Shown: positions 25,200 to 37,838 of the stretch, piece after piece
Numbering within the stretch: position 1 is the first letter of the stretch
How the letters are laid out: every line of letters begins with the position of its first letter
NCBI GenBank assembly: GCA_019635355.1
Contig: JAHBZQ010000001.1
Coordinates: 4,257,220 to 4,321,219 of the forward strand
DNA from: Rhizobacter sp.
GTDB taxonomy: Bacteria > Pseudomonadota > Gammaproteobacteria > Burkholderiales > Burkholderiaceae_C
DNA: 64,000 nucleotides
Direction of reading: 5' to 3'
Position numbers and translations under genes: made by a program
Notes under the pieces: generated by a model
What the model saw: only the letters and a program-made list of their open reading frames with translations
What the model was told of the DNA's origin: nothing
Database searches by the model: none

Positions 25200-27185
25200 T
25201 CAGGGTCGCCTGATCGGCTGCCGCACCTCGGGTGCCGGCGACACCAGCGCGGCCTGCACCGCCGCATGCACCGCCGCGGTGGCCACCGGCTTCACCAGGT
25301 GCGCCACGAACCCCGCCTCGCTCGACTGCTTCATGTCGCCCTGCGTGCCATAGCCGCTGAGCGCGATCACCGGCAGCCGGCCGTGCAGCTGGCGGCCGAT
25401 CTCGATGCCGCTGCCGTCGGGCAGGCCGAGGTCGGTCACCACCACGTCGAAGCCGTCCTGCGAGTTGGCCAGTGTCATCGCTTCATCGCAGCTGTAGGCG
25501 TGCGTCACCCGGTAGCCGAGGTCATGCAGCGACAGGCCGAGCGCATCGGCCGCGTCGCGGTTGTCTTCCACCAGCAGCACGTGCACCGAGGGCGGTGGCC
25601 GTGCACTGCCGTCGTGGGCCTCGGGCGCCTCGGCCTGCACGCTGCTCGCCTGCGTGGTGGGCAGGCGCAAGGTGAACACGGCGCCGCGGTCGCGCCCGTC
25701 GCTGTGCGCGCTCAATGAGCCGTGGTGCCGCGCCACCAGCCCGTGCGCGATCGCGAGACCGAGCCCCAGGCCACCGAAGCGGCGCGAGACGTCGGCGTCG
25801 GCCTGCTCGAACGCGAGGAAGATGCGTGGCAGCGCGTCGGCGTGGATGCCGATGCCGGTGTCGGTGCAGCTCACCTCCAGCTCGCTGCCGACGAGCCGCG
25901 AGCGCACCTCCACCCGCCCGCCGCTCGGGGTGAACTTCACCGCATTGCGCACGATGTTCCACAGCACCTGCTGGATGCGCGCCTCGTCGCCCTGCACCAC
26001 GCTTTCGGGTGCGTCGAGGTGCAGGTCGAGTGTGAGGCCGCTGCGCTGCACGTCGCCTTCCAGCATCTCGGCCACCGCGTGGATCAGCTTGTGCACGTCG
26101 ACCGGCTGCAGCCGCAGGTTGACCTTGCCGGCGCCGATGGCAGTGAGGTCGAGCAGGTCGTCGATCAGGCGCGCTTCCAGGGCCACGTTGCGCCGGATCA
26201 TGGGCAAGAGGTGCGCGAGCTTGTCGGGCACGGTCGCGTTGCGCTCCAGCAGCTGCGCCGCCGCGGCAATCGGCGCGAGCGGCGTGCGCAGCTCGTGCGA
26301 GAGCACCGCGAGGAAACGGTCTTTCGCGCGGTTGGCGCGCTCGGCTTCCTCTTTCGCTTCGCGCAGCGCCTGCGCGTCGCGCCAGGCCGGCGTGGCGTCG
26401 TGCACCAGCATCGAGAAGCCGGTGTGATCGCCCTGCGTGTTGTAGAGCGCGGTGACCACGCCTTCGCCGCGCATGCGGCTGCCGTCGGCCCGCACCAGCC
26501 AGCGGTCGTTCTGCGCGTGGCCGAGCGCGAAGGCGGTTTCCAGCTCGCGGCGCCACACGCCGTGTTCGCGGTCTTCGGGGGTGAAGACGAGGTCGATCGA
26601 GCGGCCAAGCGTGTCTTCGCGGCGGTGGCCGAAGATGGCCTGCGCGGCGAGGTTCCACGAGCGCACGATGCCCGCGCCATCGAGCAGGATCACCGCGTAG
26701 TTGCGCAGCGAGTCCACCACGCGGGCGTAGAGGGCGTCGGCGTCGCGCAGCTGGGCCTCCACCGCTTCGCGCGCCTCGCGCAGGCGCACTTCTTCCAGTG
26801 CCCGGTCGATGGCCACCGGCAGGCGCGACAGGCGGTTCTTGATCACGTAGTCGGTCGCGCCGCGCTTGAGCATGTCGACCGCGTTGTCTTCGCCGATCAC
26901 GCCCGAGACGAAGATGAAGGGGATGTGCGGATCCCGCTGCCGCACCAGATCGAGCGCCTCGCCGCCGGAATACCGCGGCAGCTGGTAGTCGGACAGGATC
27001 ACGTCGTAGCGGTAGCGGTCGAGCGAGGCCACGAAGTTCGGCTCGTCGTCGACCCAGGTCACGCGCACGTGGGGGTAGGCGCGCTTGAGCCACTCCTGCA
27101 GGATCTCGGCGTCGAAGGCCGAGTCTTCCAGCAGCAGCACGCTCAGGCGGCGGTCGTGCGGCGCGGTGGGGTGAGGGTCACTCAT
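25200..27185 (-). CDS. Hybrid histidine kinase REC-PAS-HisKA-HATPase-REC
   Basis: Start MSDPHP at 27185; LLLEDS/SDYQLP REC; HELRTPL H-box; NAVKFT, DTGIGI, GGLGLGL; C-terminal LLVEDN..TDLGLP REC. Confidence 0.95.
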   Translation of the reverse strand: MSDPHPTAPHDRRLSVLLLEDSAFDAEILQEWLKRAYPHVRVTWVDDEPNFVASLDRYRYDVILSDYQLPRYSGGEALDLVRQRDPHIPFIFVSGVIGEDNAVDMLKRGATDYVIKNRLSRLPVAIDRALEEVRLREAREAVEAQLRDADALYARVVDSLRNYAVILLDGAGIVRSWNLAAQAIFGHRREDTLGRSIDLVFTPEDREHGVWRRELETAFALGHAQNDRWLVRADGSRMRGEGVVTALYNTQGDHTGFSMLVHDATPAWRDAQALREAKEEAERANRAKDRFLAVLSHELRTPLAPIAAAAQLLERNATVPDKLAHLLPMIRRNVALEARLIDDLLDLTAIGAGKVNLRLQPVDVHKLIHAVAEMLEGDVQRSGLTLDLHLDAPESVVQGDEARIQQVLWNIVRNAVKFTPSGGRVEVRSRLVGSELEVSCTDTGIGIHADALPRIFLAFEQADADVSRRFGGLGLGLAIAHGLVARHHGSLSAHSDGRDRGAVFTLRLPTTQASSVQAEAPEAHDGSARPPPSVHVLLVEDNRDAADALGLSLHDLGYRVTHAYSCDEAMTLANSQDGFDVVVTDLGLPDGSGIEIGRQLHGRLPVIALSGYGTQGDMKQSSEAGFVAHLVKPVATAAVHAAVQAALVSPAPEVRQPIRRP

Positions 27186-27636
27186 TCCGGCGGCCCACCT
27201 TGAGCGAGCCTGGTGGCGGTTCATTGAGGACCGCCCAGAACACACCCAGGTCGGCGATGGCGGAGACGAACTGCTTGAACTCCACCGGCTTCACCACATA
27301 CGCGTTCACACCCAGCTCGTAGCTGCGCAACACGTCGGACTCTTCATGCGAGGAGGTGAGCATCACCACCGGCACGCTGCGCAGTCCCTCGGTGGCGCGC
27401 ACCGTCTTGAGCACTTCCAGGCCGTTCACCTTGGGCAGCTTGAGGTCGAGCAGGATCACCGCCGGGTTGCCTTCGGAGCGCTCGCGGTGGTGGCCTTCGC
27501 GGTTGAGGTAGTCGAGCGCCTCGGCGCCGTCGCGCACCACGATGACCTCGTTGGCCAGCTGGCTGCGTTCGAGGGCCACCAGGGTCAGTTCGAGGTCGCG
27601 TGGATCGTCTTCGACGAGGAGGATGGGCTTGAGCAT
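27178..27636 (-). CDS. Single-domain response regulator (phytochrome-associated Rcp1/BRR type)
   Basis: LLVEDD, LLDLKLPKVNG, LTSS and NAYVVKP; lies directly downstream of bphP. Confidence 0.93.
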   Translation of the reverse strand: MLKPILLVEDDPRDLELTLVALERSQLANEVIVVRDGAEALDYLNREGHHRERSEGNPAVILLDLKLPKVNGLEVLKTVRATEGLRSVPVVMLTSSHEESDVLRSYELGVNAYVVKPVEFKQFVSAIADLGVFWAVLNEPPPGSLKVGRRNE

Positions 27637-27642
27637 GAAGAC

Positions 27643-29865
27643 CTAACGGGCAGTGGAAGAGGAGAGCAGCACCTCGCGGCGCGGCAGGAGCAGGGTGAAG
27701 GTGGCGCCGCGGTCGGGTGCACCTTCGGCGCTGACGGTGCCTCCGTGGCGCTCGACGATGCGGCGCACGCTCGCGAGGCCGATGCCGGTGCCTTCGAACT
27801 CCTCGACCTGGTGCAGCCGCTGGAAGACGCCGAAGAGCTTGTTCACGTACTTCATGTCGAAGCCCACGCCGTTGTCGATGACCGCGAGGCCATCGCCTTC
27901 CGGGGTGCTCACGGCGCGCAGGGTGATCTCGGGCGCCTCGCGCGTGCGGCTGTACTTGACGGCGTTGCCAACCAGGTTGCGCACGGCCACCTGCATCAGC
28001 AGTGCGTCGCCCCAGAGCGTGGCGAAGGGGCCTTCGACGTGCCAGCGGATGCGCCCCGACTGCGGCGCGTCGAATTCGCGCACGAGGTCGCCGACCAGCG
28101 CGCCGAGGTTGATGTCGACCCGGCGCAGCGCCGAGCGGCCCATGCGCGAGAACTCGAGCAGCGCGTCGACCAGCTCGCCCGCGTAGGCCGCCGCATCCTT
28201 CACATGCGCCAGGTAGCGCTTGGAGCGGTCTCCGAGCTGTTCGCCGTCGAGCACCAGGTCGACGTAACCCGCGATGTGGCGCATCGGCGCGCGCAGGTCG
28301 TGCGACACGGTGTACGAGAACGCTTCGAGTTCCTTGTTGACGCGGCCGAGCTCGGTGGCCACTTCGGCCAGCTCTTCCGCTCGGCGCAGCACGATGCCGA
28401 TCAGCGCCTGCCGCAGCTCGAGCGCGGCACCCAGCTCACCGGGCGTCCAGTCGAGCGAGCGGCCGCGCAGCTCTTCGCGCCAGGTGGCGAAGCTGCGGCG
28501 CGGGTGCAGGCGGCCGTCGCCATTCGGGTCGACGTTCTTGCGTGGGTCTCCGGCCCAGTGGATCTCCTGCACCACCTCGGGCCGGAACCACAGGATGTAC
28601 TGCCGGTGCACCTGCGAGATCGAGAGGGCGAGCAGGCCGGAGGCGATGCGGGTGTGGCCCGCCATCGGCGGGCACAGCGCGGGCAGCCGCGCGGTGTGGA
28701 AGGCGTCGGTGGTGCGCGGCCCGAGCCATTCGACGAGCTGTTGCAGGCTGGCGTCGTCGGGCACGTCGCCCACCGTCCAGCACTCGTCGTTGAGCACCAC
28801 CGCCGCACCGCTCGCGCGCGCGATGCGCAGCAGCAGGCCCGGGTGGTCGACCAGGCGCTGCAGCGTGGCGTCGCTGTCGGCCAGGTGTGCCACCAGCGCA
28901 AGCGTGAGCTGGCGCAACTCGGCCTCTTGCGAGATGCGGGCGTTGTCTTCCTTGGCCTCGATCTGCAGCGAGAGCAGCTGGCCCAGGTGCTCGCAGGCCA
29001 TGCGGGTGGCGTAGTCGAGCTGGCGCGGGTTGTGGTCGTGCACCGAGATCAGCCCCCACAGCTCGCCGCGCACCATGATCGAGACCGAGCTCGACGCGAG
29101 CGTGCCCATGTTGCGCATGTATTCCAGGTGCACCGGCGAGACGCTGCGCAGCTGCAGCAGCGACATGTCGAGCGGCTTGTCGGCCCAGGCGGGTGAGACG
29201 ACCCGCACCGGCACCGGGGTGTAGTTCGCGTCGGCGATGAGGCGGAAGCGGTTGACCTTGTACAGCTCGCGCGCCTGCGGCGGGATGTCGGAGCCGGGAA
29301 AGTGGTGGCCGAGGTAGGAGTCGTAGCCGGCGTCGCGCGCCTCGGCCAGCACGGCACCGTGGCCCTCGGCATCGAACGAGTAGACAAGGCAGCGGCCGAA
29401 GCCCGTGAGCTGCTTCATCGACATCGCGGCCAGCTGGCACAGCGCCTCGACCGTCTGCGCCTCCTGCATGCGCGGCAGCAGCTGGCGGGTGAGCACATAG
29501 ATGGGCGCGCGTGCGCCCGGCTCGTCGGCCTGCGCTTCGAGTTCGACGTGGAGCAGGCCGTCGCGCAGATGGGCGCTCGCATGCAAATGGCGCCCGCCCA
29601 CGCGCATGGAGCCGAGCGATGACGAGCCGTCATTGCGCGAGAGGTCGGCGAGCTCGACGTCCAGGTCGGCGAACACGTCTTCGATGCGGTGGGTGAGGTC
29701 GGGCGAGTCACCCAGCAGTTGTGTCCAGTTCTCGCTGTAGGCGACGAGGGCGCGGGAACGCGCATCGAGCGAAACCATCCAGCCGTGTGGCTGGATCGCC
29801 CCCGGCACGCGGATCGGCTCACGCGCGCAGTGCGCGAGGTCGAGCGAGGTGATGGACTCGCTCAT
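27643..29865 (-). CDS. bphP: Bacteriophytochrome PAS-GAF-PHY-HisKA-HATPase
   Basis: True start MSESITSLDLAHCAREPIRVPGAIQPHG with the biliverdin-binding Cys; SDIP motif; SPVHLEYMRNM; PRRSF tongue; HDLRAP H-box. Confidence 0.96.
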   Translation of the reverse strand: MSESITSLDLAHCAREPIRVPGAIQPHGWMVSLDARSRALVAYSENWTQLLGDSPDLTHRIEDVFADLDVELADLSRNDGSSSLGSMRVGGRHLHASAHLRDGLLHVELEAQADEPGARAPIYVLTRQLLPRMQEAQTVEALCQLAAMSMKQLTGFGRCLVYSFDAEGHGAVLAEARDAGYDSYLGHHFPGSDIPPQARELYKVNRFRLIADANYTPVPVRVVSPAWADKPLDMSLLQLRSVSPVHLEYMRNMGTLASSSVSIMVRGELWGLISVHDHNPRQLDYATRMACEHLGQLLSLQIEAKEDNARISQEAELRQLTLALVAHLADSDATLQRLVDHPGLLLRIARASGAAVVLNDECWTVGDVPDDASLQQLVEWLGPRTTDAFHTARLPALCPPMAGHTRIASGLLALSISQVHRQYILWFRPEVVQEIHWAGDPRKNVDPNGDGRLHPRRSFATWREELRGRSLDWTPGELGAALELRQALIGIVLRRAEELAEVATELGRVNKELEAFSYTVSHDLRAPMRHIAGYVDLVLDGEQLGDRSKRYLAHVKDAAAYAGELVDALLEFSRMGRSALRRVDINLGALVGDLVREFDAPQSGRIRWHVEGPFATLWGDALLMQVAVRNLVGNAVKYSRTREAPEITLRAVSTPEGDGLAVIDNGVGFDMKYVNKLFGVFQRLHQVEEFEGTGIGLASVRRIVERHGGTVSAEGAPDRGATFTLLLPRREVLLSSSTAR

Positions 29866-30512
29866 GCCGGCAGCCCGTCGAACACCTCGCACAAGGCGGC
29901 GAAGGTGCGCTGCGCGCTGTGGCAGGCGCTGCGGGCCGCGGCGTCGTCGGCGCCGAGTTCGTGGGCGATGACCTCTCGGAACTCGCGCCACATCGCCGCG
30001 GTGGCCGGCCCGTGGCCGTGGAAATAGCGGGCGCCGTGGGAGGGCGTGAGGCCGAGGTGCTGCTTGAGCAGCGGGGTGATGACCTGCCCGCCGAGGGCGG
30101 AGCCTTCGATCACGTACATCGAGCCGAGCGCTCCGGCCACATCGGCCATCGGGATGCTGCGCACGGCACGCTCGGCGGCGTGGGCCAGGTGCGGGGTATG
30201 CGGCCCGCCGAGCTGGCGCAGGTCGTCGGCGGCAAAGCCACTGCGCTTGCGCTTGGCACACCAGTCGCGCAGATGGGCGGGCAGGGCGGCGGCCACACGC
30301 GGCTCCCAGCGCCAGAGGAATTCATGGAAGCCCGCCATGACGCCCGCATAACGGGCTGCGCTCATGGGGTGCGTGAGCCGCAGCACCGACTCGATGCGCG
30401 TGTGCTCGGTGCGGGTCTTCTCTCGCAACTCCTTCAACAGCCCTGCTTCAATGCCCAATGAGGCGGCTCCCAATCGAGAACAAAAGTGCGCTGATTCTGG
30501 AGGAGCAGCCAT
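29862..30512 (-). CDS. bphO: Biliverdin-producing heme oxygenase
   Basis: LREKTRTEHTRIE (proximal His) and LGSMYVIEGSALGGQVI; ATGA overlap with bphP; exact start uncertain. Confidence 0.92.
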   Translation of the reverse strand: MAAPPESAHFCSRLGAASLGIEAGLLKELREKTRTEHTRIESVLRLTHPMSAARYAGVMAGFHEFLWRWEPRVAAALPAHLRDWCAKRKRSGFAADDLRQLGGPHTPHLAHAAERAVRSIPMADVAGALGSMYVIEGSALGGQVITPLLKQHLGLTPSHGARYFHGHGPATAAMWREFREVIAHELGADDAAARSACHSAQRTFAALCEVFDGLPA

Positions 30513-30627
30513 GCCCCTGCGCGGCAGTCCAGCTTGCAAAAATTACCGATGGGTAGGTGCTTTCCCACAGCGGAATCGGGTGTTGCAGACTGGCGCGCGC
30601 GCAGGCGGGCCTCTTAGCCTTGCGTGC

Positions 30628-31485
30628 ATGGCAACCGCATCGCGATCACTGTGGAAAGGCGCCATCAGCTTCGGGCTGGTGCACATCCCCGTGAGCCTGC
30701 ATTCGGCGTCCACCGAAAGCGGGGTCGACTTCGACTGGCTCGACAAACGCAGCATGGACCCGGTCGGCTACAAGCGCATCAACAAGCGCACCGGCCGTGA
30801 AATCACCAAGGAAAACATCGTCAAGGGCATCGAGTACGAGAACGAGAAGTACGTGCTGCTCAGCGACGAGGAAATCGAGGCGGTGTACCCGCGCTCCACC
30901 CAGGCCATCGAGATCGAGGCCTTCGTCTCGATGAGCGAGATCCCGTTCGTTTACCTCGACCGGCCCTATTACCTGGCGCCTGTGGCGAAGGGCCAGAAGG
31001 TCTATGCGCTGCTGCGCGAGGCGCTGGTGCGCAGCGAGCGCGTGGGCCTGGCGCGGGTGGTGATCCACACCAAGCAGCACCTGGCAGCGCTCGTGCCGGC
31101 CGGGCCGGCGCTGGTGCTCAACCTCTTGCGCTGGAGCGACGAGATCCGCACCTGGGAAGACCTGGCGTTGCCAAAGGAAGGCGCGAAGGCCAACCACCTC
31201 ACCGAGCGTGAGCTCGAGATGGCCGGCCAGCTGATCGACGACATGACGGTGGCCTTCGACCCTTCGCAGTTCTCCGACCGCTTCAAGGAGCAGGTGATGG
31301 CGCTCGTGGAGCGCAAGGTCGAAGCCGGCGAGACGGAGACGGTGCTCGAGCCCGAGGAGCAACCCCTGCCGAAGGATGCCAAGGGCGCCGACGTGGTCGA
31401 CCTCACGGCCCTGCTGCAGGAGAGCCTGAAGGGCCGTGGCGAGCACAAGCACAAGGCCGCTCCGAGAAAGAAGAAGGCCGCCTGA
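30628..31485 (+). CDS. ku: Non-homologous end-joining protein Ku
   Basis: WKGAISFGLVHIPV, IVKGIEYE, IEIEAFV, YLDRPYYL and VVDLTALLQESL; basic tail. Confidence 0.96.
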   Translation: MATASRSLWKGAISFGLVHIPVSLHSASTESGVDFDWLDKRSMDPVGYKRINKRTGREITKENIVKGIEYENEKYVLLSDEEIEAVYPRSTQAIEIEAFVSMSEIPFVYLDRPYYLAPVAKGQKVYALLREALVRSERVGLARVVIHTKQHLAALVPAGPALVLNLLRWSDEIRTWEDLALPKEGAKANHLTERELEMAGQLIDDMTVAFDPSQFSDRFKEQVMALVERKVEAGETETVLEPEEQPLPKDAKGADVVDLTALLQESLKGRGEHKHKAAPRKKKAA

Positions 31486-31494
31486 GGACGCACC

Positions 31495-33993
31495 ATGGGC
31501 ACCAGCAGCCTCGCCACCTACCAGCGCAAGCGCAACTTCGGCGCCACGCCGGAACCGGCAGGCGAAGTGGTGGCCTCGGGCGACGAGCTCAGCTTCGTCA
31601 TCCAGAAGCACGCGGCACGACGGCTGCATTACGACTTCCGGCTCGAACTCGATGGCACGCTCAAAAGCTGGGCCGTGCCCAAGGGCCCGAGCCTCGACCC
31701 GCATGACAAGCGCATGGCGGTGCAGGTGGAAGACCACCCGCTGTCGTATGGCGGCTTCGAGGGCACGATCCCCGAAGGCCACTACGGCGCCGGCTCGGTG
31801 ATCGTGTGGGACCGCGGCACCTGGGTGCCGCTTGGCGACCCGCGCAAGGGCTACCGCGAGGGCAAGCTCAAGTTCGAGCTCAAGGGCGAGAAGCTGCACG
31901 GTGGCTTCACGCTCGTGCGCATGAAGTCGCGTGAGAACGAGCGACAGGTGCCGTGGCTGCTCATCAAGGAGCACGACGACGAAGCGCGGTCGGCGAGCGA
32001 GTTCGACGTGATCGAGGCGCTGCCCGACAGCGTGCTGGCCGGCAGGAAGAAGCGCCCCGTCGCGGCCAAGGCACCGGCGAAGTCGCCCGCCAAAGCTCGG
32101 CGCAACGCGAAAGCCGAGCTGCCGCTCTCGCTCACGCCGCAGCTGGCCACGCTGGTCGACGACATCCCGCCCGGCGACGACTGGCTCTACGAGATCAAGT
32201 TCGACGGCTACCGCGTCGTCACGCGCATCGATGGCGACGACGTGCGCTGCTTCACCCGCAAAGGGCACGACTGGTCGCACCGATTGCCCACGCTCGTGAA
32301 GGCGATCCGTGCGCTTGGCATCGGCTGGGGGTGGCTCGACGGCGAGATCGTCGTCGCAGGCCCCAAGGGCACGCCCGATTTCCAGCTGCTGCAGAACGCG
32401 TTCGATGCGCAGCGCACGCAAGACATCCAGTACTACGTGTTCGACCTGCCATTCCACGACGGCGAAGACCTGCGCGAGCGGCCCTTGAGCGAGCGGCGCG
32501 AGCGCTTGCAATCGCTGCTGGCAGGACACACGGGCGGCACAGTGCAGTTCAGCGCGTCGTTCGACGCCGACCCGCGCGAGCTGCTCGCCTCGGCTCGCGA
32601 CGCCGGCCTCGAAGGGCTGATCGGCAAGCGTGCGTCGGCCACCTATCACTCGCGCCGCTCGGCCGACTGGGTCAAGCTCAAGCTCGGCCAGCGGCAGGAG
32701 TTCGTGATCGGCGGCTTCACCGACCCCAAGGGTTCGCGCGCGGGCATCGGCGCGTTGCTGATCGGCGTGCACGATGCCGAGGGGAAGCTGCGCTACGCCG
32801 GCAACGTGGGCACCGGGTTCGACGACAAGACGCTGCTCGCGCTGCGCCAGCAGCTCGACGAGATCGAGACGACGACGAGCCCCTACACCGATGGGCCCGC
32901 ACGCGTCGGCACGGTCAAGCTCGTGAAGCCGCATTGGGTGAAGCCCAAGCTCATCGCCGAGGTGGCGTTTGCCGAGTGGACGAAGAGCGGGCATGTGCGC
33001 CAGGCGGTCTTCCACGGCCTGCGCAGCGACAAGCCGCCGGAGCGCATCACGAAGGAAGTCGCCAGGCACATGGAGAAAGCACCTGCCAACAAGGCGCTGC
33101 CGAAAGACTTCCGCGTGACGCACCCGGAGCGTGTGGTCGACAAGCGCACCGGCGTCACCAAGGGCGAGCTCATCGCGTATTGCGCGCAAGTGGCCGAGCT
33201 GATGCTGCCGCACCTGAAGCAGCGGCCGGTCTCGCTGCTGCGCGCGCCCGATGGCGTGGACGGGCAGTTCTTCTTCCAGAAGCACGCCGAGAAGAAGAGC
33301 TTTCCGAACATCGAGGTCCTCGACCGGGCGTTGTACCCGTCGCACGACCCGTTGCTCGCGATCGGCACGCCGCTCGCGCTGCTGTCGGCCGCGCAGATGA
33401 ACGTGCTGGAGTTCCACACCTGGAACGCCACCACGCGCGCAATGGACCGGCCCGACCGCATGGTGTTCGACCTCGACCCCGGCGAGGGCGTGGGCTGGCC
33501 GCAGGTGCTGGAAGCTGCGCAGCTGGTGCATGCGCTGCTGGAGGAGATCGGCCTCGTGGGCTTCCTGAAGACGAGCGGCGGCAAGGGCCTGCACGTGGTG
33601 GTGCCGCTCGCGCCCAAGTACGACTGGGACACGGTGAAAGACTTCTCGCAGGCCATCGTGGCGCACATGGCCTCGGTGATCCCCGATCGCTTCGTTGCGA
33701 AGAGCGGGCCGAAGAATCGCGTCGGCCGCATCTTCATCGACTACCTGCGCAACGGGCTCGGCGCGACCACGGTGTGTGCGTGGTCGGCCCGTGCGCGGCC
33801 GGGGCTGGGCGTCTCGGTGCCGGTGACGTGGGATGAGCTCGCGGGCCTGAAGAGCGGCGCGCAGTGGACGGTTGAGAACGTGGCCGAGCGACTGGCCGTC
33901 GGCAACACCCCGTGGGCCGACTACGCGAAGACGAAGCAGAGCCTGGTGAAGCCGATGAAGGCGATGGGCTTCGATCCGAAGGCGGTGCGATGA
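31495..33993 (+). CDS. ligD: ATP-dependent DNA ligase D (phosphoesterase-ligase-polymerase)
   Basis: YQRKRNF, QKHAARRLHYDFRLE (PE); EIKFDGYR, EGLIGKR (LIG); THPERV, DLDPG, KTSGGKGLH, IDYLRN (POL). Confidence 0.97.
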   Translation: MGTSSLATYQRKRNFGATPEPAGEVVASGDELSFVIQKHAARRLHYDFRLELDGTLKSWAVPKGPSLDPHDKRMAVQVEDHPLSYGGFEGTIPEGHYGAGSVIVWDRGTWVPLGDPRKGYREGKLKFELKGEKLHGGFTLVRMKSRENERQVPWLLIKEHDDEARSASEFDVIEALPDSVLAGRKKRPVAAKAPAKSPAKARRNAKAELPLSLTPQLATLVDDIPPGDDWLYEIKFDGYRVVTRIDGDDVRCFTRKGHDWSHRLPTLVKAIRALGIGWGWLDGEIVVAGPKGTPDFQLLQNAFDAQRTQDIQYYVFDLPFHDGEDLRERPLSERRERLQSLLAGHTGGTVQFSASFDADPRELLASARDAGLEGLIGKRASATYHSRRSADWVKLKLGQRQEFVIGGFTDPKGSRAGIGALLIGVHDAEGKLRYAGNVGTGFDDKTLLALRQQLDEIETTTSPYTDGPARVGTVKLVKPHWVKPKLIAEVAFAEWTKSGHVRQAVFHGLRSDKPPERITKEVARHMEKAPANKALPKDFRVTHPERVVDKRTGVTKGELIAYCAQVAELMLPHLKQRPVSLLRAPDGVDGQFFFQKHAEKKSFPNIEVLDRALYPSHDPLLAIGTPLALLSAAQMNVLEFHTWNATTRAMDRPDRMVFDLDPGEGVGWPQVLEAAQLVHALLEEIGLVGFLKTSGGKGLHVVVPLAPKYDWDTVKDFSQAIVAHMASVIPDRFVAKSGPKNRVGRIFIDYLRNGLGATTVCAWSARARPGLGVSVPVTWDELAGLKSGAQWTVENVAERLAVGNTPWADYAKTKQSLVKPMKAMGFDPKAVR

Positions 33994-35039
33994 GGGCTGT
34001 GGTGAATCCCTTCGAATCCGAGGCACCGCCGGGGCTGCGCTACGTGAGCGACACCATGCCCGGCATACGCCGGCTGCGCGACGGCGACGGCTTCCGCTAC
34101 CGCGATGCCAAGGGCCGGCTGCTGCGCAACGCAAAGGAGCTGCAGCGCATCCGCAAGCTCGCCATCCCGCCCGCCTACGAAGAGGTGTGGATCTGCCCGC
34201 TGCCCGAAGGCCACCTGCAGGCCACCGGCCGCGACGCGCGTGGCCGGAAGCAGTACCGCTACCACCCCGACTGGCGCGAAGCGCGCGACGCACACAAGTT
34301 CGAGCGCATGCGCGAGTTCGGCCAGGCGCTGCCGCGCATCCGTGCCAAGGTGAAGCGCGATCTGGCGGCACCGGTGGGCAGCCGCGCATCGGTGCTCGCG
34401 GCGCTGGTGCGACTGCTCGACACCACGCTCGTGCGCATCGGCAACGACGAATACGCGCGCGAGAACGGCTCCTTCGGCCTCACCACCTTGCGCAACAAGC
34501 ACGCGGCGGTGAAAGGCGCGACGCTGCACTTGCGCTTTCGCGGCAAGAGTGGCGTGTGGCACGAGCTCACGCTCGAAGACCCGCAGGTCGCGCGCATCGT
34601 GCGCGCCTGCCAGGCGATGCCGGGCCAGGAACTCTTCCAGTACGAAGACGACAAGGGCGAGACACGCTGCGTCGGCTCGGCCGACGTCAACGAATACATC
34701 AAGGTCTTGAGCGGCGCCGACTTCACCGCGAAGGACTTCCGCACCTGGCACGCGAGCGTGCATGCGCTCGCGCGGCTGTGCGCTTTGCCGGTCACCGGGC
34801 CGGTGAGCCGAAAGCGGGCGAACGAGGTCTTGCGGGAAGTGGCCGGACTGCTGGGCAACACGCTCGCGGTGTGCCGCAAGTCGTATGTGCACCCGGGGGT
34901 GATGGCGGTCGCGACGCAGCGCGGCGTCGAGGCCCTGGCGGGTGGGGCGTTGAAACGCTGCCGGGGCCTGACGGTGGCCGAGTGCCGGCTGCTGGCCTTC
35001 CTGTCAGCGCAACCGGGGCCCGTGGAGGAGCCCCGGTAG
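33990..35039 (+). CDS. Bacterial (poxvirus-like) DNA topoisomerase IB
   Basis: IPPAYEEVWIC, GRDARGRKQYRYH, RIGNDEY, FRGKSG, KDFRTW and GNTLAVCRKSYVHP (catalytic Tyr); ATG overlaps the ligD TGA. Confidence 0.95.
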   Translation: MRAVVNPFESEAPPGLRYVSDTMPGIRRLRDGDGFRYRDAKGRLLRNAKELQRIRKLAIPPAYEEVWICPLPEGHLQATGRDARGRKQYRYHPDWREARDAHKFERMREFGQALPRIRAKVKRDLAAPVGSRASVLAALVRLLDTTLVRIGNDEYARENGSFGLTTLRNKHAAVKGATLHLRFRGKSGVWHELTLEDPQVARIVRACQAMPGQELFQYEDDKGETRCVGSADVNEYIKVLSGADFTAKDFRTWHASVHALARLCALPVTGPVSRKRANEVLREVAGLLGNTLAVCRKSYVHPGVMAVATQRGVEALAGGALKRCRGLTVAECRLLAFLSAQPGPVEEPR

Positions 35040-35044
35040 GCCGA

Positions 35045-35320
35045 TCAGGCGGCGGCCGTCGTGGTGGACGAGGAGGAGGGCGACAGCTTGGCGCGTGCCG
35101 CTTCTTCGGCCTCCTTGCAGGACGGGGCGCACACATGTTGCGCCTTGCCCAGCAGGCGGCGGGTCTTCAGGGTGTTGCGGGGGCGATGCTTGCCGCACAG
35201 GAAGCACGACATGGTCCCGGCCTGGAAGTCACCCGCACTCGCGAACGGCGAGCCGCCTTCCTTGACCTTGTAACGCAGCCCATCGGCCTGGATCTTGGTT
35301 TTGACGACGTCTTTTGCCAA
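35045..35320 (-). CDS. Small hypothetical Cys-rich protein (possible Zn ribbon), 91 aa
   Basis: TTG start at 35320 with GAGGAAG RBS; SCFLCGKHR...HVCAPSCKE. Confidence 0.75.
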   Translation of the reverse strand: MAKDVVKTKIQADGLRYKVKEGGSPFASAGDFQAGTMSCFLCGKHRPRNTLKTRRLLGKAQHVCAPSCKEAEEAARAKLSPSSSSTTTAAA

Positions 35321-35659
35321 AGTAACTTCCTCAATTGGTTGAAAACGCAAACCCTGTATTGTCCTGCGATCTCGGTCGACGCGCACGCCTAGGGTGAAAC
35401 AAAGCATCCGCGCAGCGCCGAGAAGATTGGATTGTCCAGGCTTGACGCCCAGTATGCAAACGCCAACTCACCGGGAAGGCGAGGCCAGGCACTGGCGATA
35501 ACCCTTAGATCCACGGCGCCGGCATGGTTCCGCAGGCGGGCCCGCCCGGAGCGCGCCGCCGTCTTTGACGCCCGCAAGGGCCCGTTTGCAGGCGTTTCAG
35601 GGGTTCCCTTGGAGAGCCGATTGCCGCTACACCTGGAGCCGAGACGACATGGAGGCGCC

Positions 35660-36076
35660 ATGCAGTACCTCAGGCCCAGGTGCAGGGCTGTTTGCACCCT
35701 GTCTGCCCTGTGCGGGCTGCTGAGCACCGCCGCGGCTCAGCAGGCGACCGTCACAGCCGGCCACACGGTGATCGACAACTGCGTGACCACGGCCCGGCTC
35801 TCGTTCAAGGCCGGCGTCAACGGCATCGTGCTCGATGAGCGCGACGGCGCCGAGGTGGCGGCGAGCATCGTGCGCCGTTACCCGATGATCGAGCGCGATG
35901 GCCTGTACCCCACGGCGGTGGCCCTGTGGCGGCCGCCCAAAGGCGAATGGGTCTACGCCACGCTGTCGCAGAAGGCGCATGCGCCGCACGCGGCCTGCTT
36001 CACGGCGAACGTCGATGCCTCGAAGGTCGACGCGACGCCCACGCTGATCCGCAAATACTTCAGCCCGGCGCCTTGA
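35660..36076 (+). CDS. Hypothetical secreted protein
   Basis: GGAGG RBS before the ATG at 35660; signal peptide ending AAAQ; no recognisable domain. Confidence 0.7.
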   Translation: MQYLRPRCRAVCTLSALCGLLSTAAAQQATVTAGHTVIDNCVTTARLSFKAGVNGIVLDERDGAEVAASIVRRYPMIERDGLYPTAVALWRPPKGEWVYATLSQKAHAPHAACFTANVDASKVDATPTLIRKYFSPAP

Positions 36077-36512
36077 TCTGGGCCGCCTGGGCTTCCGCCT
36101 GCACCCGACCGCACGCGCGCACGATGCGCCAGTGCGCAAGCGCCACGGCGCCGGCCTTGCCGACGCCCCAGCCGAGCACCCAGCCGAGCGCGACCTCGGC
36201 CACCCAGGCACCGAGCGCCGGGATGGACTCGACACCCGCCGGCTCGATGGGGAAGAACATGGCGAGGCCGGTGAAGGCGATCGCCGTCCACAAGGCCGTC
36301 CAGCCGCCACTGCGGCCGAGCTGGCGGTTGATGACACGCTCGAAGTGCTCGTTGCGCGCGGAGCGCAGCCCGGGCACGCGCAGCGTCACGCGCAGGCGCG
36401 GCAGCTTCCAGCGCTTGTTGATCGACTGACGGAAGGCGTCGAGATCAGCGAGTGAGTCGATCGCCAGCGTGCGGGGCGGCGGGATGCGGCGTACCGCGTG
36501 CTTGGTCGCCAC
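36060..36512 (-). CDS. Hypothetical 2-TM membrane protein
   Basis: GTG start 3 bp after the tandem-TetR stop; two hydrophobic helices. Confidence 0.65.
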   Translation of the reverse strand: MATKHAVRRIPPPRTLAIDSLADLDAFRQSINKRWKLPRLRVTLRVPGLRSARNEHFERVINRQLGRSGGWTALWTAIAFTGLAMFFPIEPAGVESIPALGAWVAEVALGWVLGWGVGKAGAVALAHWRIVRACGRVQAEAQAAQIKAPG

Positions 36513-36515
36513 CGG

Positions 36516-37757
36516 TCAGATGGCCGCGCTCGGCGGGCAGAGGATGCCCAGGAAGATCGGCCGCACGTAGAGCTCGGCCACGTTGTCCTGCGTGGCGCTC
36601 GGCACCCAGTGCGTGAGGCTGCCGGCCGAGTTGACGAGGCCGCTCGCCACCTGCGCGGCGATCACCGGGTGCAGCGGGCGGATGGAGCCGTCCATCATGC
36701 CGTCGACCACCACGTCGGCCAGGCGCTCGGTGAGGCGGCTCATGGTGCGGCGCACGTCGCTGCGACGCTCGGGGTCGGAGAGGGCGCTGGTCGCGCCCAG
36801 GCGCAGCAGCGGGCCTTCGGGCGACAGCTGGAAGCGTGCGAGCGACCGCGAGATCGCACAGGCGCGGTCCCAGCCCTTGCCTTCGATGCCGTCGGCCAGG
36901 CTCAGCGCGCGGCGGATCACGGCGAAGGTGCGCTGGAAGCAGTCGAAGATCAGGTCTTCCTTGTTGTCGTTGTGGTGGTAGAACGAGCCCTTGGTCACGT
37001 TGAGCTTGGCCGAGATCATGTCGACCGAGGCGCCGCGGTAGCCCTGCTCGTTGACGAGGAAGGAGGCGGCGCGCAGGAAGGCTTCGGCGGTGGCGTCGTC
37101 GTTGACGGTGAGTCGCCATTCGCGCTCGGCCTGCGACGGGGCCCACACCGAGCCGGCCGCGGCGCTGCCGTGGATCACGATGTCGCTCACGCGCGCGGCG
37201 ATGTGGGCGTATTCGTCGGTCTCGTAGCGGTCGATCCAGCCGCGCACCCAGTGCGCCACCGACAACACCATGTAGGTGCGCGCGGCCAGGTCGGCCCGGC
37301 CGAGCTGCGCCGTCTGCGGCGTGCGCAGCAGCTCGCGCAGGCGGCGGAACATGTCGTTGTAGGCGTCGGAGACCACCTCGAAATGCGGGCTCGGCAGCGC
37401 GCGCATGTCGTTGAAGGTCATGAGCGGCGCATGCGCGCCGTGGTCGATGTCGGCGAAGAGGGCGGCTTGCAGGCGGAAGAACTCATGCACCCGCGCCTCG
37501 ATGCCGCTCTTTTGCGATGCCTGGTCGATGACGTGGCGGATGACCTCGATCGCCCGCAGGAAGCAGGCGGTCGCCAGGTCTTCCTTCTTGCGGTAGTAGT
37601 AGGTGACGCTGTTGGTGACCAGCCCCACGCTGGCCGCGATGTCGGCGAGCGTCGCGCCCTTCACGCCGTGCTGGTTGAAGAGGTCGGCAGCGGCACTGAG
37701 GATGGCTTCGCGCTTTTCCTGAAAGCGCTGCGTCTGGGCAGGGAGCGTCGCGGACAT
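36516..37757 (-). CDS. Tandem (double) TetR-family regulator
   Basis: Two TetR HTHs: EAILSAAADLFNQHGVKGATLADIAASVGLVTNSVTYYY and EAFLRAASFLVNEQGYRGASVDMISAKLNVTKGSFYHH; alternative start 37793. Confidence 0.9.
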   Translation of the reverse strand: MSATLPAQTQRFQEKREAILSAAADLFNQHGVKGATLADIAASVGLVTNSVTYYYRKKEDLATACFLRAIEVIRHVIDQASQKSGIEARVHEFFRLQAALFADIDHGAHAPLMTFNDMRALPSPHFEVVSDAYNDMFRRLRELLRTPQTAQLGRADLAARTYMVLSVAHWVRGWIDRYETDEYAHIAARVSDIVIHGSAAAGSVWAPSQAEREWRLTVNDDATAEAFLRAASFLVNEQGYRGASVDMISAKLNVTKGSFYHHNDNKEDLIFDCFQRTFAVIRRALSLADGIEGKGWDRACAISRSLARFQLSPEGPLLRLGATSALSDPERRSDVRRTMSRLTERLADVVVDGMMDGSIRPLHPVIAAQVASGLVNSAGSLTHWVPSATQDNVAELYVRPIFLGILCPPSAAI

Positions 37758-37838
37758 CGGCGGGTGACGGGAGGGGGGCTTGCGTGCAGCCATGAATTAT
37801 CCGCCAGCCCCTTCTCCTGTTCTGCCCTGCGCTACGCG

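Follow-up and report, generated by a model that had tools for sequence, protein, structure and literature searches.

What might a type IB DNA topoisomerase contribute when its gene shares an operon with those of the two proteins of bacterial non-homologous end joining (NHEJ)? The question is raised by a stretch of 64,000 nucleotides from Rhizobacter sp. (assembly GCA_019635355.1, contig JAHBZQ010000001.1, positions 4,257,220 to 4,321,219 of the forward strand), hereafter the window, in which ku, ligD and topIB follow one another. Bacterial NHEJ is presented as the work of two proteins, and the poxvirus-like type IB topoisomerases of bacteria (TopIB) have been known for about two decades with a physiological role that, to our knowledge, is still undefined. 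In the abstracts of two published accounts, bacterial NHEJ is described as Ku plus LigD only (PMC6379672, PMC7969030), and no report tying TopIB to LigD or to bacterial NHEJ was found in the literature searched, except for Deinococcus reviews. The answer developed here builds on gene order, gene overlap, intact motifs, conservation of the three-gene block, genome-wide co-occurrence and repeated independent linkage, each of which was observed directly. We favour, at about an even chance, the explanation that TopIB plays an accessory part, expressed alongside Ku and LigD, in a DNA-maintenance programme of non-growing cells, and does not belong to the core of NHEJ.

The ku-ligD-topIB operon

The three genes lie on one strand (Table 1), with ku and ligD separated by 9 nt (31486-31494) and the start codon of topIB placed on the stop codon of ligD. 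A terminator scan found no terminator-like sites between them, purine runs resembling Shine-Dalgarno sequences stand 5' of ligD (GAGGA, overlapping the ku stop) and 5' of topIB (GAAGG), and the gene order is kept in four relatives (L163-L166). With its genes on one strand, closely spaced or overlapping, undivided by a terminator and in a conserved order, ku-ligD-topIB is, as far as sequence can tell, a single transcription unit whose genes are predicted to be co-transcribed. Overlaps of 4 nt are common among operon genes, so the ATGA supports co-transcription and probable coupling of topIB translation to that of ligD, and is not special by itself. The original prediction, made from the same DNA, had given both the 9-bp spacing and the ATGA overlap, which were reproduced to the nucleotide, and its operon reading proves correct in view of the spacing, the terminator-free junctions and the block kept in relatives; the translational coupling that it drew from the overlap is better graded as probable.

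All three products look active, judging by their profiles and residues. Ku matches TIGR02772 with 298 bits (cut-off 150) and PF02735 with 167 bits over profile positions 1-190 of 190. LigD is assigned to DNA ligase D by TIGR02776 (703 bits), NF004628 (1199 bits) and PF13298, PF01068, PF04679 and PF21686, all above their cut-offs, and it carries the 3'-phosphoesterase (PE) motif H39..H45-D47-R49, the ligase adenylation motif K235-FDG and the POL motif D659-L-D661. TopIB matches PF01028 (119 bits) and PF21338 (89 bits), both above cut-offs, and aligns with the Deinococcus radiodurans TopIB structure 2F4Q with an E-value of 1e-53. Its pentad R149/K186/R251/N290/Y299 falls on the catalytic motifs of that structure, as expected of a bacterial, poxvirus-like type IB enzyme; in an alignment of 40 diverse homologues the two R, the K and the Y never vary, and the N hardly does. 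The catalytic motifs had been called intact beforehand, and every residue of the pentad is indeed present.

The block is intact in the four relatives, which include a Rhizobacter metagenome-assembled genome (MAG) and Sphaerotilaceae bacterium SBD11-9 (TopIB 79-91% identical). The 4-nt ligD/topIB overlap recurs in L163, L164 and L166, and a 71-nt gap takes its place in L165. A GGDEF-EAL gene lies directly upstream in L163 and L166, where the bacteriophytochrome cluster that precedes ku in the window is missing. The operon is real, and conserved within the Rhizobacter-like Sphaerotilaceae clade while its flanks change. TopIB and LigD are each encoded once in the genome that holds the window (5.34 Mb, 68% GC), which also has a second Ku gene unlinked to this locus.

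TopIB and NHEJ genes across genomes

Is the association confined to this clade? Phylogenetic profiling, which the original prediction had proposed, was carried out on 401 evenly drawn Pseudomonadota genomes and replicated on 191 Bacteroidota genomes, with counts that take no account of phylogeny in either sample, and it returned strong co-occurrence in both phyla. TopIB is present in 77 of the Pseudomonadota genomes and Ku in 74; both occur in 63, TopIB alone in 14, Ku alone in 11 and neither in 313 (odds ratio 128, phi 0.80), so that 25 of 88 carrier genomes are discordant. Counted by genus, the figures are 39, 6, 7 and 160, respectively. Within the family of the window the two genes agree in every genome: seven carry both (4.3-6.6 Mb) and six carry neither (3.3-5.4 Mb), with overlapping genome sizes. 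Among Bacteroidota, both genes occur in 15 genomes, TopIB alone in 7, Ku alone in 7 and neither in 162 (odds ratio 50, phi 0.64, P 3e-12). Three further genomes with TopIB, from Acidobacteriota, Verrucomicrobiota and Kapaibacterium, also encode Ku, at another place than TopIB.

How strong such an association is can be judged from pairs of known standing. The phi coefficient reaches 0.94 for Ku with LigD-PE, which are true partners, 0.80 for TopIB with Ku and 0.78 for TopIB with LigD-PE, against 0.64 for Ku and 0.62 for TopIB with DUF892, taken as a stress-regulon control. The TopIB-Ku association is thus intermediate, below that of true partners and above that of a regulon mate. The PE domain tracks TopIB no better than Ku does, and 13 of the 14 TopIB-only genomes also lack PE. 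The idea that PE heals TopIB ends was set aside as far as phyletic pattern goes, which does not discriminate here because PE nearly always accompanies Ku. In the control genome of Bacillus subtilis, Ku is present and TopIB absent. In many sampled genomes (G064, G084, G096, G116, G151, G260 and G389) a gene for DUF892, a YciE/YciF-like ferritin-type stress protein, lies about 700 nt or less from ku, which places Ku in stress-gene islands in those genomes.

Physical linkage was surveyed within 10 kb on either side of all 78 TopIB loci of the Pseudomonadota sample, the window making 79, and of 80 TopIB loci in a cross-phylum sample. An NHEJ gene was found in 9 of the 79 loci and in 3 of the 80, and in Bacteroidota the genes are close in one of the 15 genomes with both, where they stand 2.5 kb apart and divergent. 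Regular encoding of TopIB at the same locus as NHEJ genes is therefore not observed, and 88-96% of TopIB genes lie away from them. The nine linked Pseudomonadota genomes nevertheless compare with about 0.9 expected by chance, an excess of about tenfold (Poisson P about 5e-7).

The arrangements are diverse. Another genus of the window's family has ligD-ku-katE-topIB (L043), and one locus combines a ku-ligD pair convergent with a topIB-ku pair whose genes are 39 nt apart (L023). A truncated ku precedes topIB, with stand-alone ligases nearby, in L012 and L011; ku-PolDom is followed 7 kb further on by topIB, with a DUF892 gene in between, in L046; and glgX-topIB-PolDom, with a 4-nt topIB/PolDom overlap, occurs in three genomes of one genus (L074-L076). 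The cross-phylum sample adds ku-PolDom-topIB in Rhizobacter sp. Root404 (L086), ligD-ku divergent from topIB in Eoetvoesiella (L122) and a ligase convergent with topIB on a verrucomicrobial contig. Only one clade has the genes in the exact order ku-ligD-topIB. On the TopIB tree the linked copies require at least six gains or losses, forced by well-supported branches, and none of 500 label shuffles (mean 8.7) needed as few as the six changes observed. Linkage of TopIB to NHEJ genes is thus rare but recurrent and polyphyletic, with different partners and different gene orders. Two genomes of one genus, G296 and G323, each have two divergent TopIB paralogues (L011/L071 and L012/L073), one of which adjoins ku or ligase genes while the other does not.

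Possible roles of TopIB beside Ku and LigD

What could bring the genes together? TopIB neighbourhoods are otherwise highly variable, and a conserved neighbour outside NHEJ was sought and rejected: apart from the lineage-specific MscS, the families that recur are generic ones (ABC ATPase, SDR, aminotransferase, aldehyde dehydrogenase). The informative neighbours are genes of stationary phase or desiccation, namely katE, for a large catalase, between ku and topIB in L043, glgX, for a glycogen/trehalose debranching enzyme, in L075, and MscS in Sphingomonadaceae. A gene for an MscS-type mechanosensitive channel directly follows topIB on the same strand in L047, L054, L059, L061-L063 and others; the family that holds these loci (f48), of the same phylum as the window, is probably Sphingomonadaceae-like, by comparison with Sphingomonas melonis. 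The topIB-MscS pair of this family matches S. melonis #1831 and #1832, two genes that depend on EcfG.

EcfG dependence and EcfG promoter motifs are reported in S. melonis for 'Topoisomerase IB' (#1831) as well as for 'Ku protein' (#1102) (PMC6599016). In Sinorhizobium meliloti, expression of ku3-ku4 and ligD4 needs RpoE2, and both stress and stationary phase induce NHEJ (PMC6379672). The EcfG/RpoE2 regulon contains both gene sets, so that TopIB would be co-expressed with NHEJ genes under stress. Since DUF892 co-occurs with both TopIB and Ku, these S. melonis data make shared stress regulation an explanation for much of the signal, although not for all of it.

In the maintenance programme that we favour, the operon would probably be transcribed from a conserved element 35-75 nt 5' of ku, and ku, ligD and topIB would be expressed in non-growing, stressed or desiccated cells. 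TopIB would there cut and reseal strands without ATP, so as to relax DNA or deal with nicks, on the non-replicating chromosome that Ku and LigD also serve, a chemistry that may suit energy-poor cells, and in this lineage it would have been fused into their operon. The relation is facultative, as 14 of the 77 Pseudomonadota genomes with TopIB lack Ku and 11 of the 74 with Ku lack TopIB, and NHEJ model organisms that have no TopIB join ends with just Ku and LigD. It is because each side exists without the other, and because of these models, that TopIB is not taken for a core NHEJ factor.

Several observations nevertheless weigh against co-expression as the whole story. The association of TopIB with Ku exceeds that of either gene with DUF892, in a calibration that uses this one control family only, and it persists when genomes are stratified by DUF892 (odds ratio 9 where DUF892 is present and 168 where it is absent). 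The tightest couplings of topIB are, moreover, with NHEJ genes: the ATGA with ligD in the window, the 4-nt overlap with PolDom in L075 and the 39 nt to ku in L023. Excess over the control and tight coupling together hint at more than shared regulation.

The wider claims made for this locus fare accordingly. A functional tie between TopIB and NHEJ is favoured by co-occurrence in two phyla, linkage at about ten times chance and at least six independent juxtapositions, and is weakened insofar as shared stress regulation accounts for much of this. The term three-gene repair system overstates the case, given that 88-96% of TopIB genes are unlinked, that 25 of 88 carriers are discordant and that Deinococcus has TopIB without Ku or LigD. 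TopIB as a third component of bacterial NHEJ can draw on phi values of 0.80 and 0.64, but these stay below the 0.94 of Ku with LigD-PE, and B. subtilis has Ku without TopIB. Co-occurrence through shared stress regulation only, which the original prediction had itself named as grounds for its refutation, fits much of the signal, and a remainder survives DUF892 stratification.

Could TopIB instead be a direct accessory enzyme of Ku/LigD end joining, acting at the joint or just after it? We regard this as possible, if on the unlikely side. LigD-POL prefers ribonucleoside triphosphates, LigD-PE removes both 3'-ribonucleotides and 3'-phosphates, and cleavage by type IB enzymes at a ribonucleotide leaves a 2',3'-cyclic phosphate. 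TopIB might then incise at ribonucleotides embedded by LigD-POL and leave ends that LigD-PE can heal; it might also join 5'-OH ends that LigD cannot seal, or bridge or relax DNA at the break. This chemical fit, drawn from general enzymology, speaks for a direct role alongside the predicted translational coupling to ligD in the window and to a stand-alone PolDom in another family, the recurrent juxtapositions (at least six) with ku, ligD, PolDom or stand-alone ligases, the 9 linked genomes against about 0.9 by chance (P about 5e-7), and co-occurrence with Ku above the DUF892 control. Against it stand the unlinked majority of TopIB genes and the TopIB-only genomes, 13 of 14 of which lack PE as well, implying that TopIB functions without NHEJ. 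Ku and LigD, furthermore, suffice for NHEJ in models without TopIB such as B. subtilis, and PE follows TopIB no better than Ku does (0.78 against 0.80). A fusion of TopIB to an NHEJ domain was also looked for and rejected: none of the longest TopIB representatives scanned has a Ku or LigD domain, their extra parts being only GT4, helix-turn-helix (HTH) or ADH fragments, probably artefacts of gene calling.

A broader proposal, which we consider unlikely, would make TopIB a dedicated accessory of the ATP-dependent-ligase repair systems of non-growing cells, whether Ku/LigD, PolDom or LigC-type ligases. TopIB could, for example, excise ribonucleotides left by LigD-POL, yielding 2',3'-cyclic-phosphate and 5'-OH ends for LigD-PE to process, or it could perform ATP-independent end joining in an energy-starved cell. 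If true, this would be the first defined physiological role for the bacterial TopIB family.

The dependency might also run the other way, with Ku and LigD kept as the sole means of mending the breaks that TopIB would make in non-replicating cells when its cleavage aborts at a nick, a lesion or a ribonucleotide. Type IB cleavage complexes beside nicks are generally known to give rise to double-strand breaks, and LigD-PE to remove 3'-phosphates, both of which agree with this idea, as do the co-occurrence and linkage of TopIB and Ku. The distribution is not nested, however, TopIB without Ku (14 of 77) being as common as Ku without TopIB (11 of 74), and all 11 Deinococcus species compared carry TopIB and lack Ku and LigD, hence NHEJ (PMC6300522); such a dependency therefore appears quite improbable. 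A neutral, lineage-specific accident, with co-occurrence produced by large soil-bacterium genomes and shared ancestry, would fit the single clade with the exact gene order, the variable TopIB neighbourhoods, counts that ignore phylogeny and a DUF892 control that co-occurs too, but is very improbable in the face of replication in Bacteroidota, the perfect match at similar genome sizes in the window's family, an association that holds by genus (39 both, 6 TopIB only, 7 Ku only, 160 neither) and polyphyletic linkage (0 of 500 shuffles).

The association narrows the search for TopIB function to non-growing, break-repairing cells. Even if the link is purely regulatory, TopIB is still placed in the stationary-phase and desiccation stress toolkit, and a quantified, cross-phylum association offers a testable clue to the role of bacterial TopIB.

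Flanking elements and known systems

The element from which the operon is probably transcribed is a 42-nt block in front of ku, a candidate promoter or operator of the operon by virtue of its conservation and position. It aligns in all five loci irrespective of the gene upstream, is present in a single copy in the genome and is confined, in the close clade, to the front of ku; it was not found at the TopIB loci of other genomes. An attempt to define a regulon through the block was therefore abandoned, as the block is unique in its genome and absent from those loci. Several promoter types were tried and rejected: a sigma-54 promoter, as the GG varies in an alignment read by eye, in which the spacing also misses by one; an EcfG promoter, as GGAAC-N16-17-CGTT is not recognisable; and sigma-70 and RpoS readings, which are unconvincing. 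A promoter scan returned nothing, and an Rfam scan of 29800-36600 gave zero matches.

Upstream, 88 nt separate ku from the divergent bphO, the first gene of a bacteriophytochrome cluster (25200-30539) that is present in L164 and L165 and absent in L163 and L166. This patchy distribution marks the bphO-bphP cluster as an inserted or lost flank, outside the repair module. Downstream, a small open reading frame (ORF) convergent with topIB marks the operon end; it is 72-96% identical in L163-L166 and absent at every other locus fetched, and its only Pfam match is below threshold. Uncharacterised ORFs follow 3' of it, then a double TetR gene and ABC transporter genes. The double TetR gene, with two TetR_N domains from a tandem duplication, is kept in relatives beside an oligopeptide ABC transporter. 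In L164 (11447-14114), about 3.4 kb 3' of topIB, lies a stressosome-like set comprising an RsbR-type RsbRD_N-STAS protein, a STAS protein, a HATPase kinase and a SpoIIE phosphatase. A genomic island or horizontal transfer was considered and rejected, with GC flat at 0.65-0.71, no flanking repeats and GC at third codon positions (GC3) like that of neighbouring genes. No ligase gene lies near the second Ku paralogue (C1:4014607-4015644, outside the window; L002), which is 33% identical and whose stop shares 4 nt with the start of a 269-aa ORF. Inspection of this ORF by eye suggests a MerR-like N-terminus and TPR-like repeats.

Table 1. Features of the ku-ligD-topIB locus and its flanks, in window coordinates
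Feature	Coordinates	Strand	Start and stop codons	Description
hybrid histidine kinase	25200-27245	-		bacteriophytochrome cluster; Pfam
response regulator	27178-27636	-		bacteriophytochrome cluster; Pfam
bphP	about 27643-29890	-		bacteriophytochrome cluster; Pfam
bphO	29862..30539	-		heme oxygenase, first gene of divergent bacteriophytochrome cluster; Pfam matches
conserved 42-nt block	30552..30593	+		candidate promoter/operator, 35-75 nt 5' of ku; GGTAGGTGCTTTCCCACAGCGGAATCGGGTGTTGCAGACTGG
ku	30628..31485	+	ATG 30628, TGA 31483-31485	bacterial Ku DNA-end-binding protein, 285 aa, C-terminal tail rich in Lys
ligD	31495..33993	+	ATG 31495, TGA 33991-33993	DNA ligase D, 832 aa, domain order PE-LIG-POL
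ATGA overlap	33990..33993	+		topIB start codon on ligD stop codon, read directly
topIB	33990..35039	+	ATG 33990, stop 35037-35039	poxvirus-like bacterial type IB topoisomerase, 349 aa
small conserved ORF	35045..35407	-		CxxC...CxxxC motif, Ser/Thr/Ala tail; convergent with topIB, stops 5 nt apart
double TetR gene	36516-37793	-		TetR-family protein, 425 aa

How does the locus compare with systems already described? It resembles the canonical ku-ligD locus of Pseudomonas aeruginosa, Mycobacterium tuberculosis and B. subtilis (ykoV-ykoU) in that Ku adjoins a multidomain LigD, here of the Pseudomonas-type PE-LIG-POL order with all signature motifs, and differs from it by a third gene, topIB, with predicted coupling to ligD. 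Its TopIB shares the two-domain architecture and the R-K-R-N-Y pentad with the D. radiodurans enzyme (DraTopIB, 2F4Q) and with that of P. aeruginosa (PAT), which is a Mg-stimulated relaxase (PMC2666729); a text search of that paper returned nothing on phenotype, physiological role, repair or stationary phase. For the characterised enzymes, unlike the TopIB of the window, no operon with NHEJ genes has been described, and neither Ku nor LigD occurs in Deinococcus. Proposals for a role in vivo have so far concerned G-quadruplex (G4) DNA and genome segregation in Deinococcus, the D. radiodurans topoIB mutant being sensitive to a G4 drug and showing segregation defects.

The alphaproteobacterial EcfG/RpoE2 regulon is similar in holding Ku and LigD (S. 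meliloti, PMC6379672) or TopIB and Ku (S. melonis, PMC6599016), but its genes are scattered and have their own EcfG promoters, whereas the window has a single operon, in a betaproteobacterium, with no recognisable EcfG box. The closest parallels are the other loci in which TopIB lies near ku, ligD, PolDom or a stand-alone ATP-dependent ligase (L043, L023, L075, L086, L122), although gene order and partner differ in each of them and their origins on the TopIB tree are separate.

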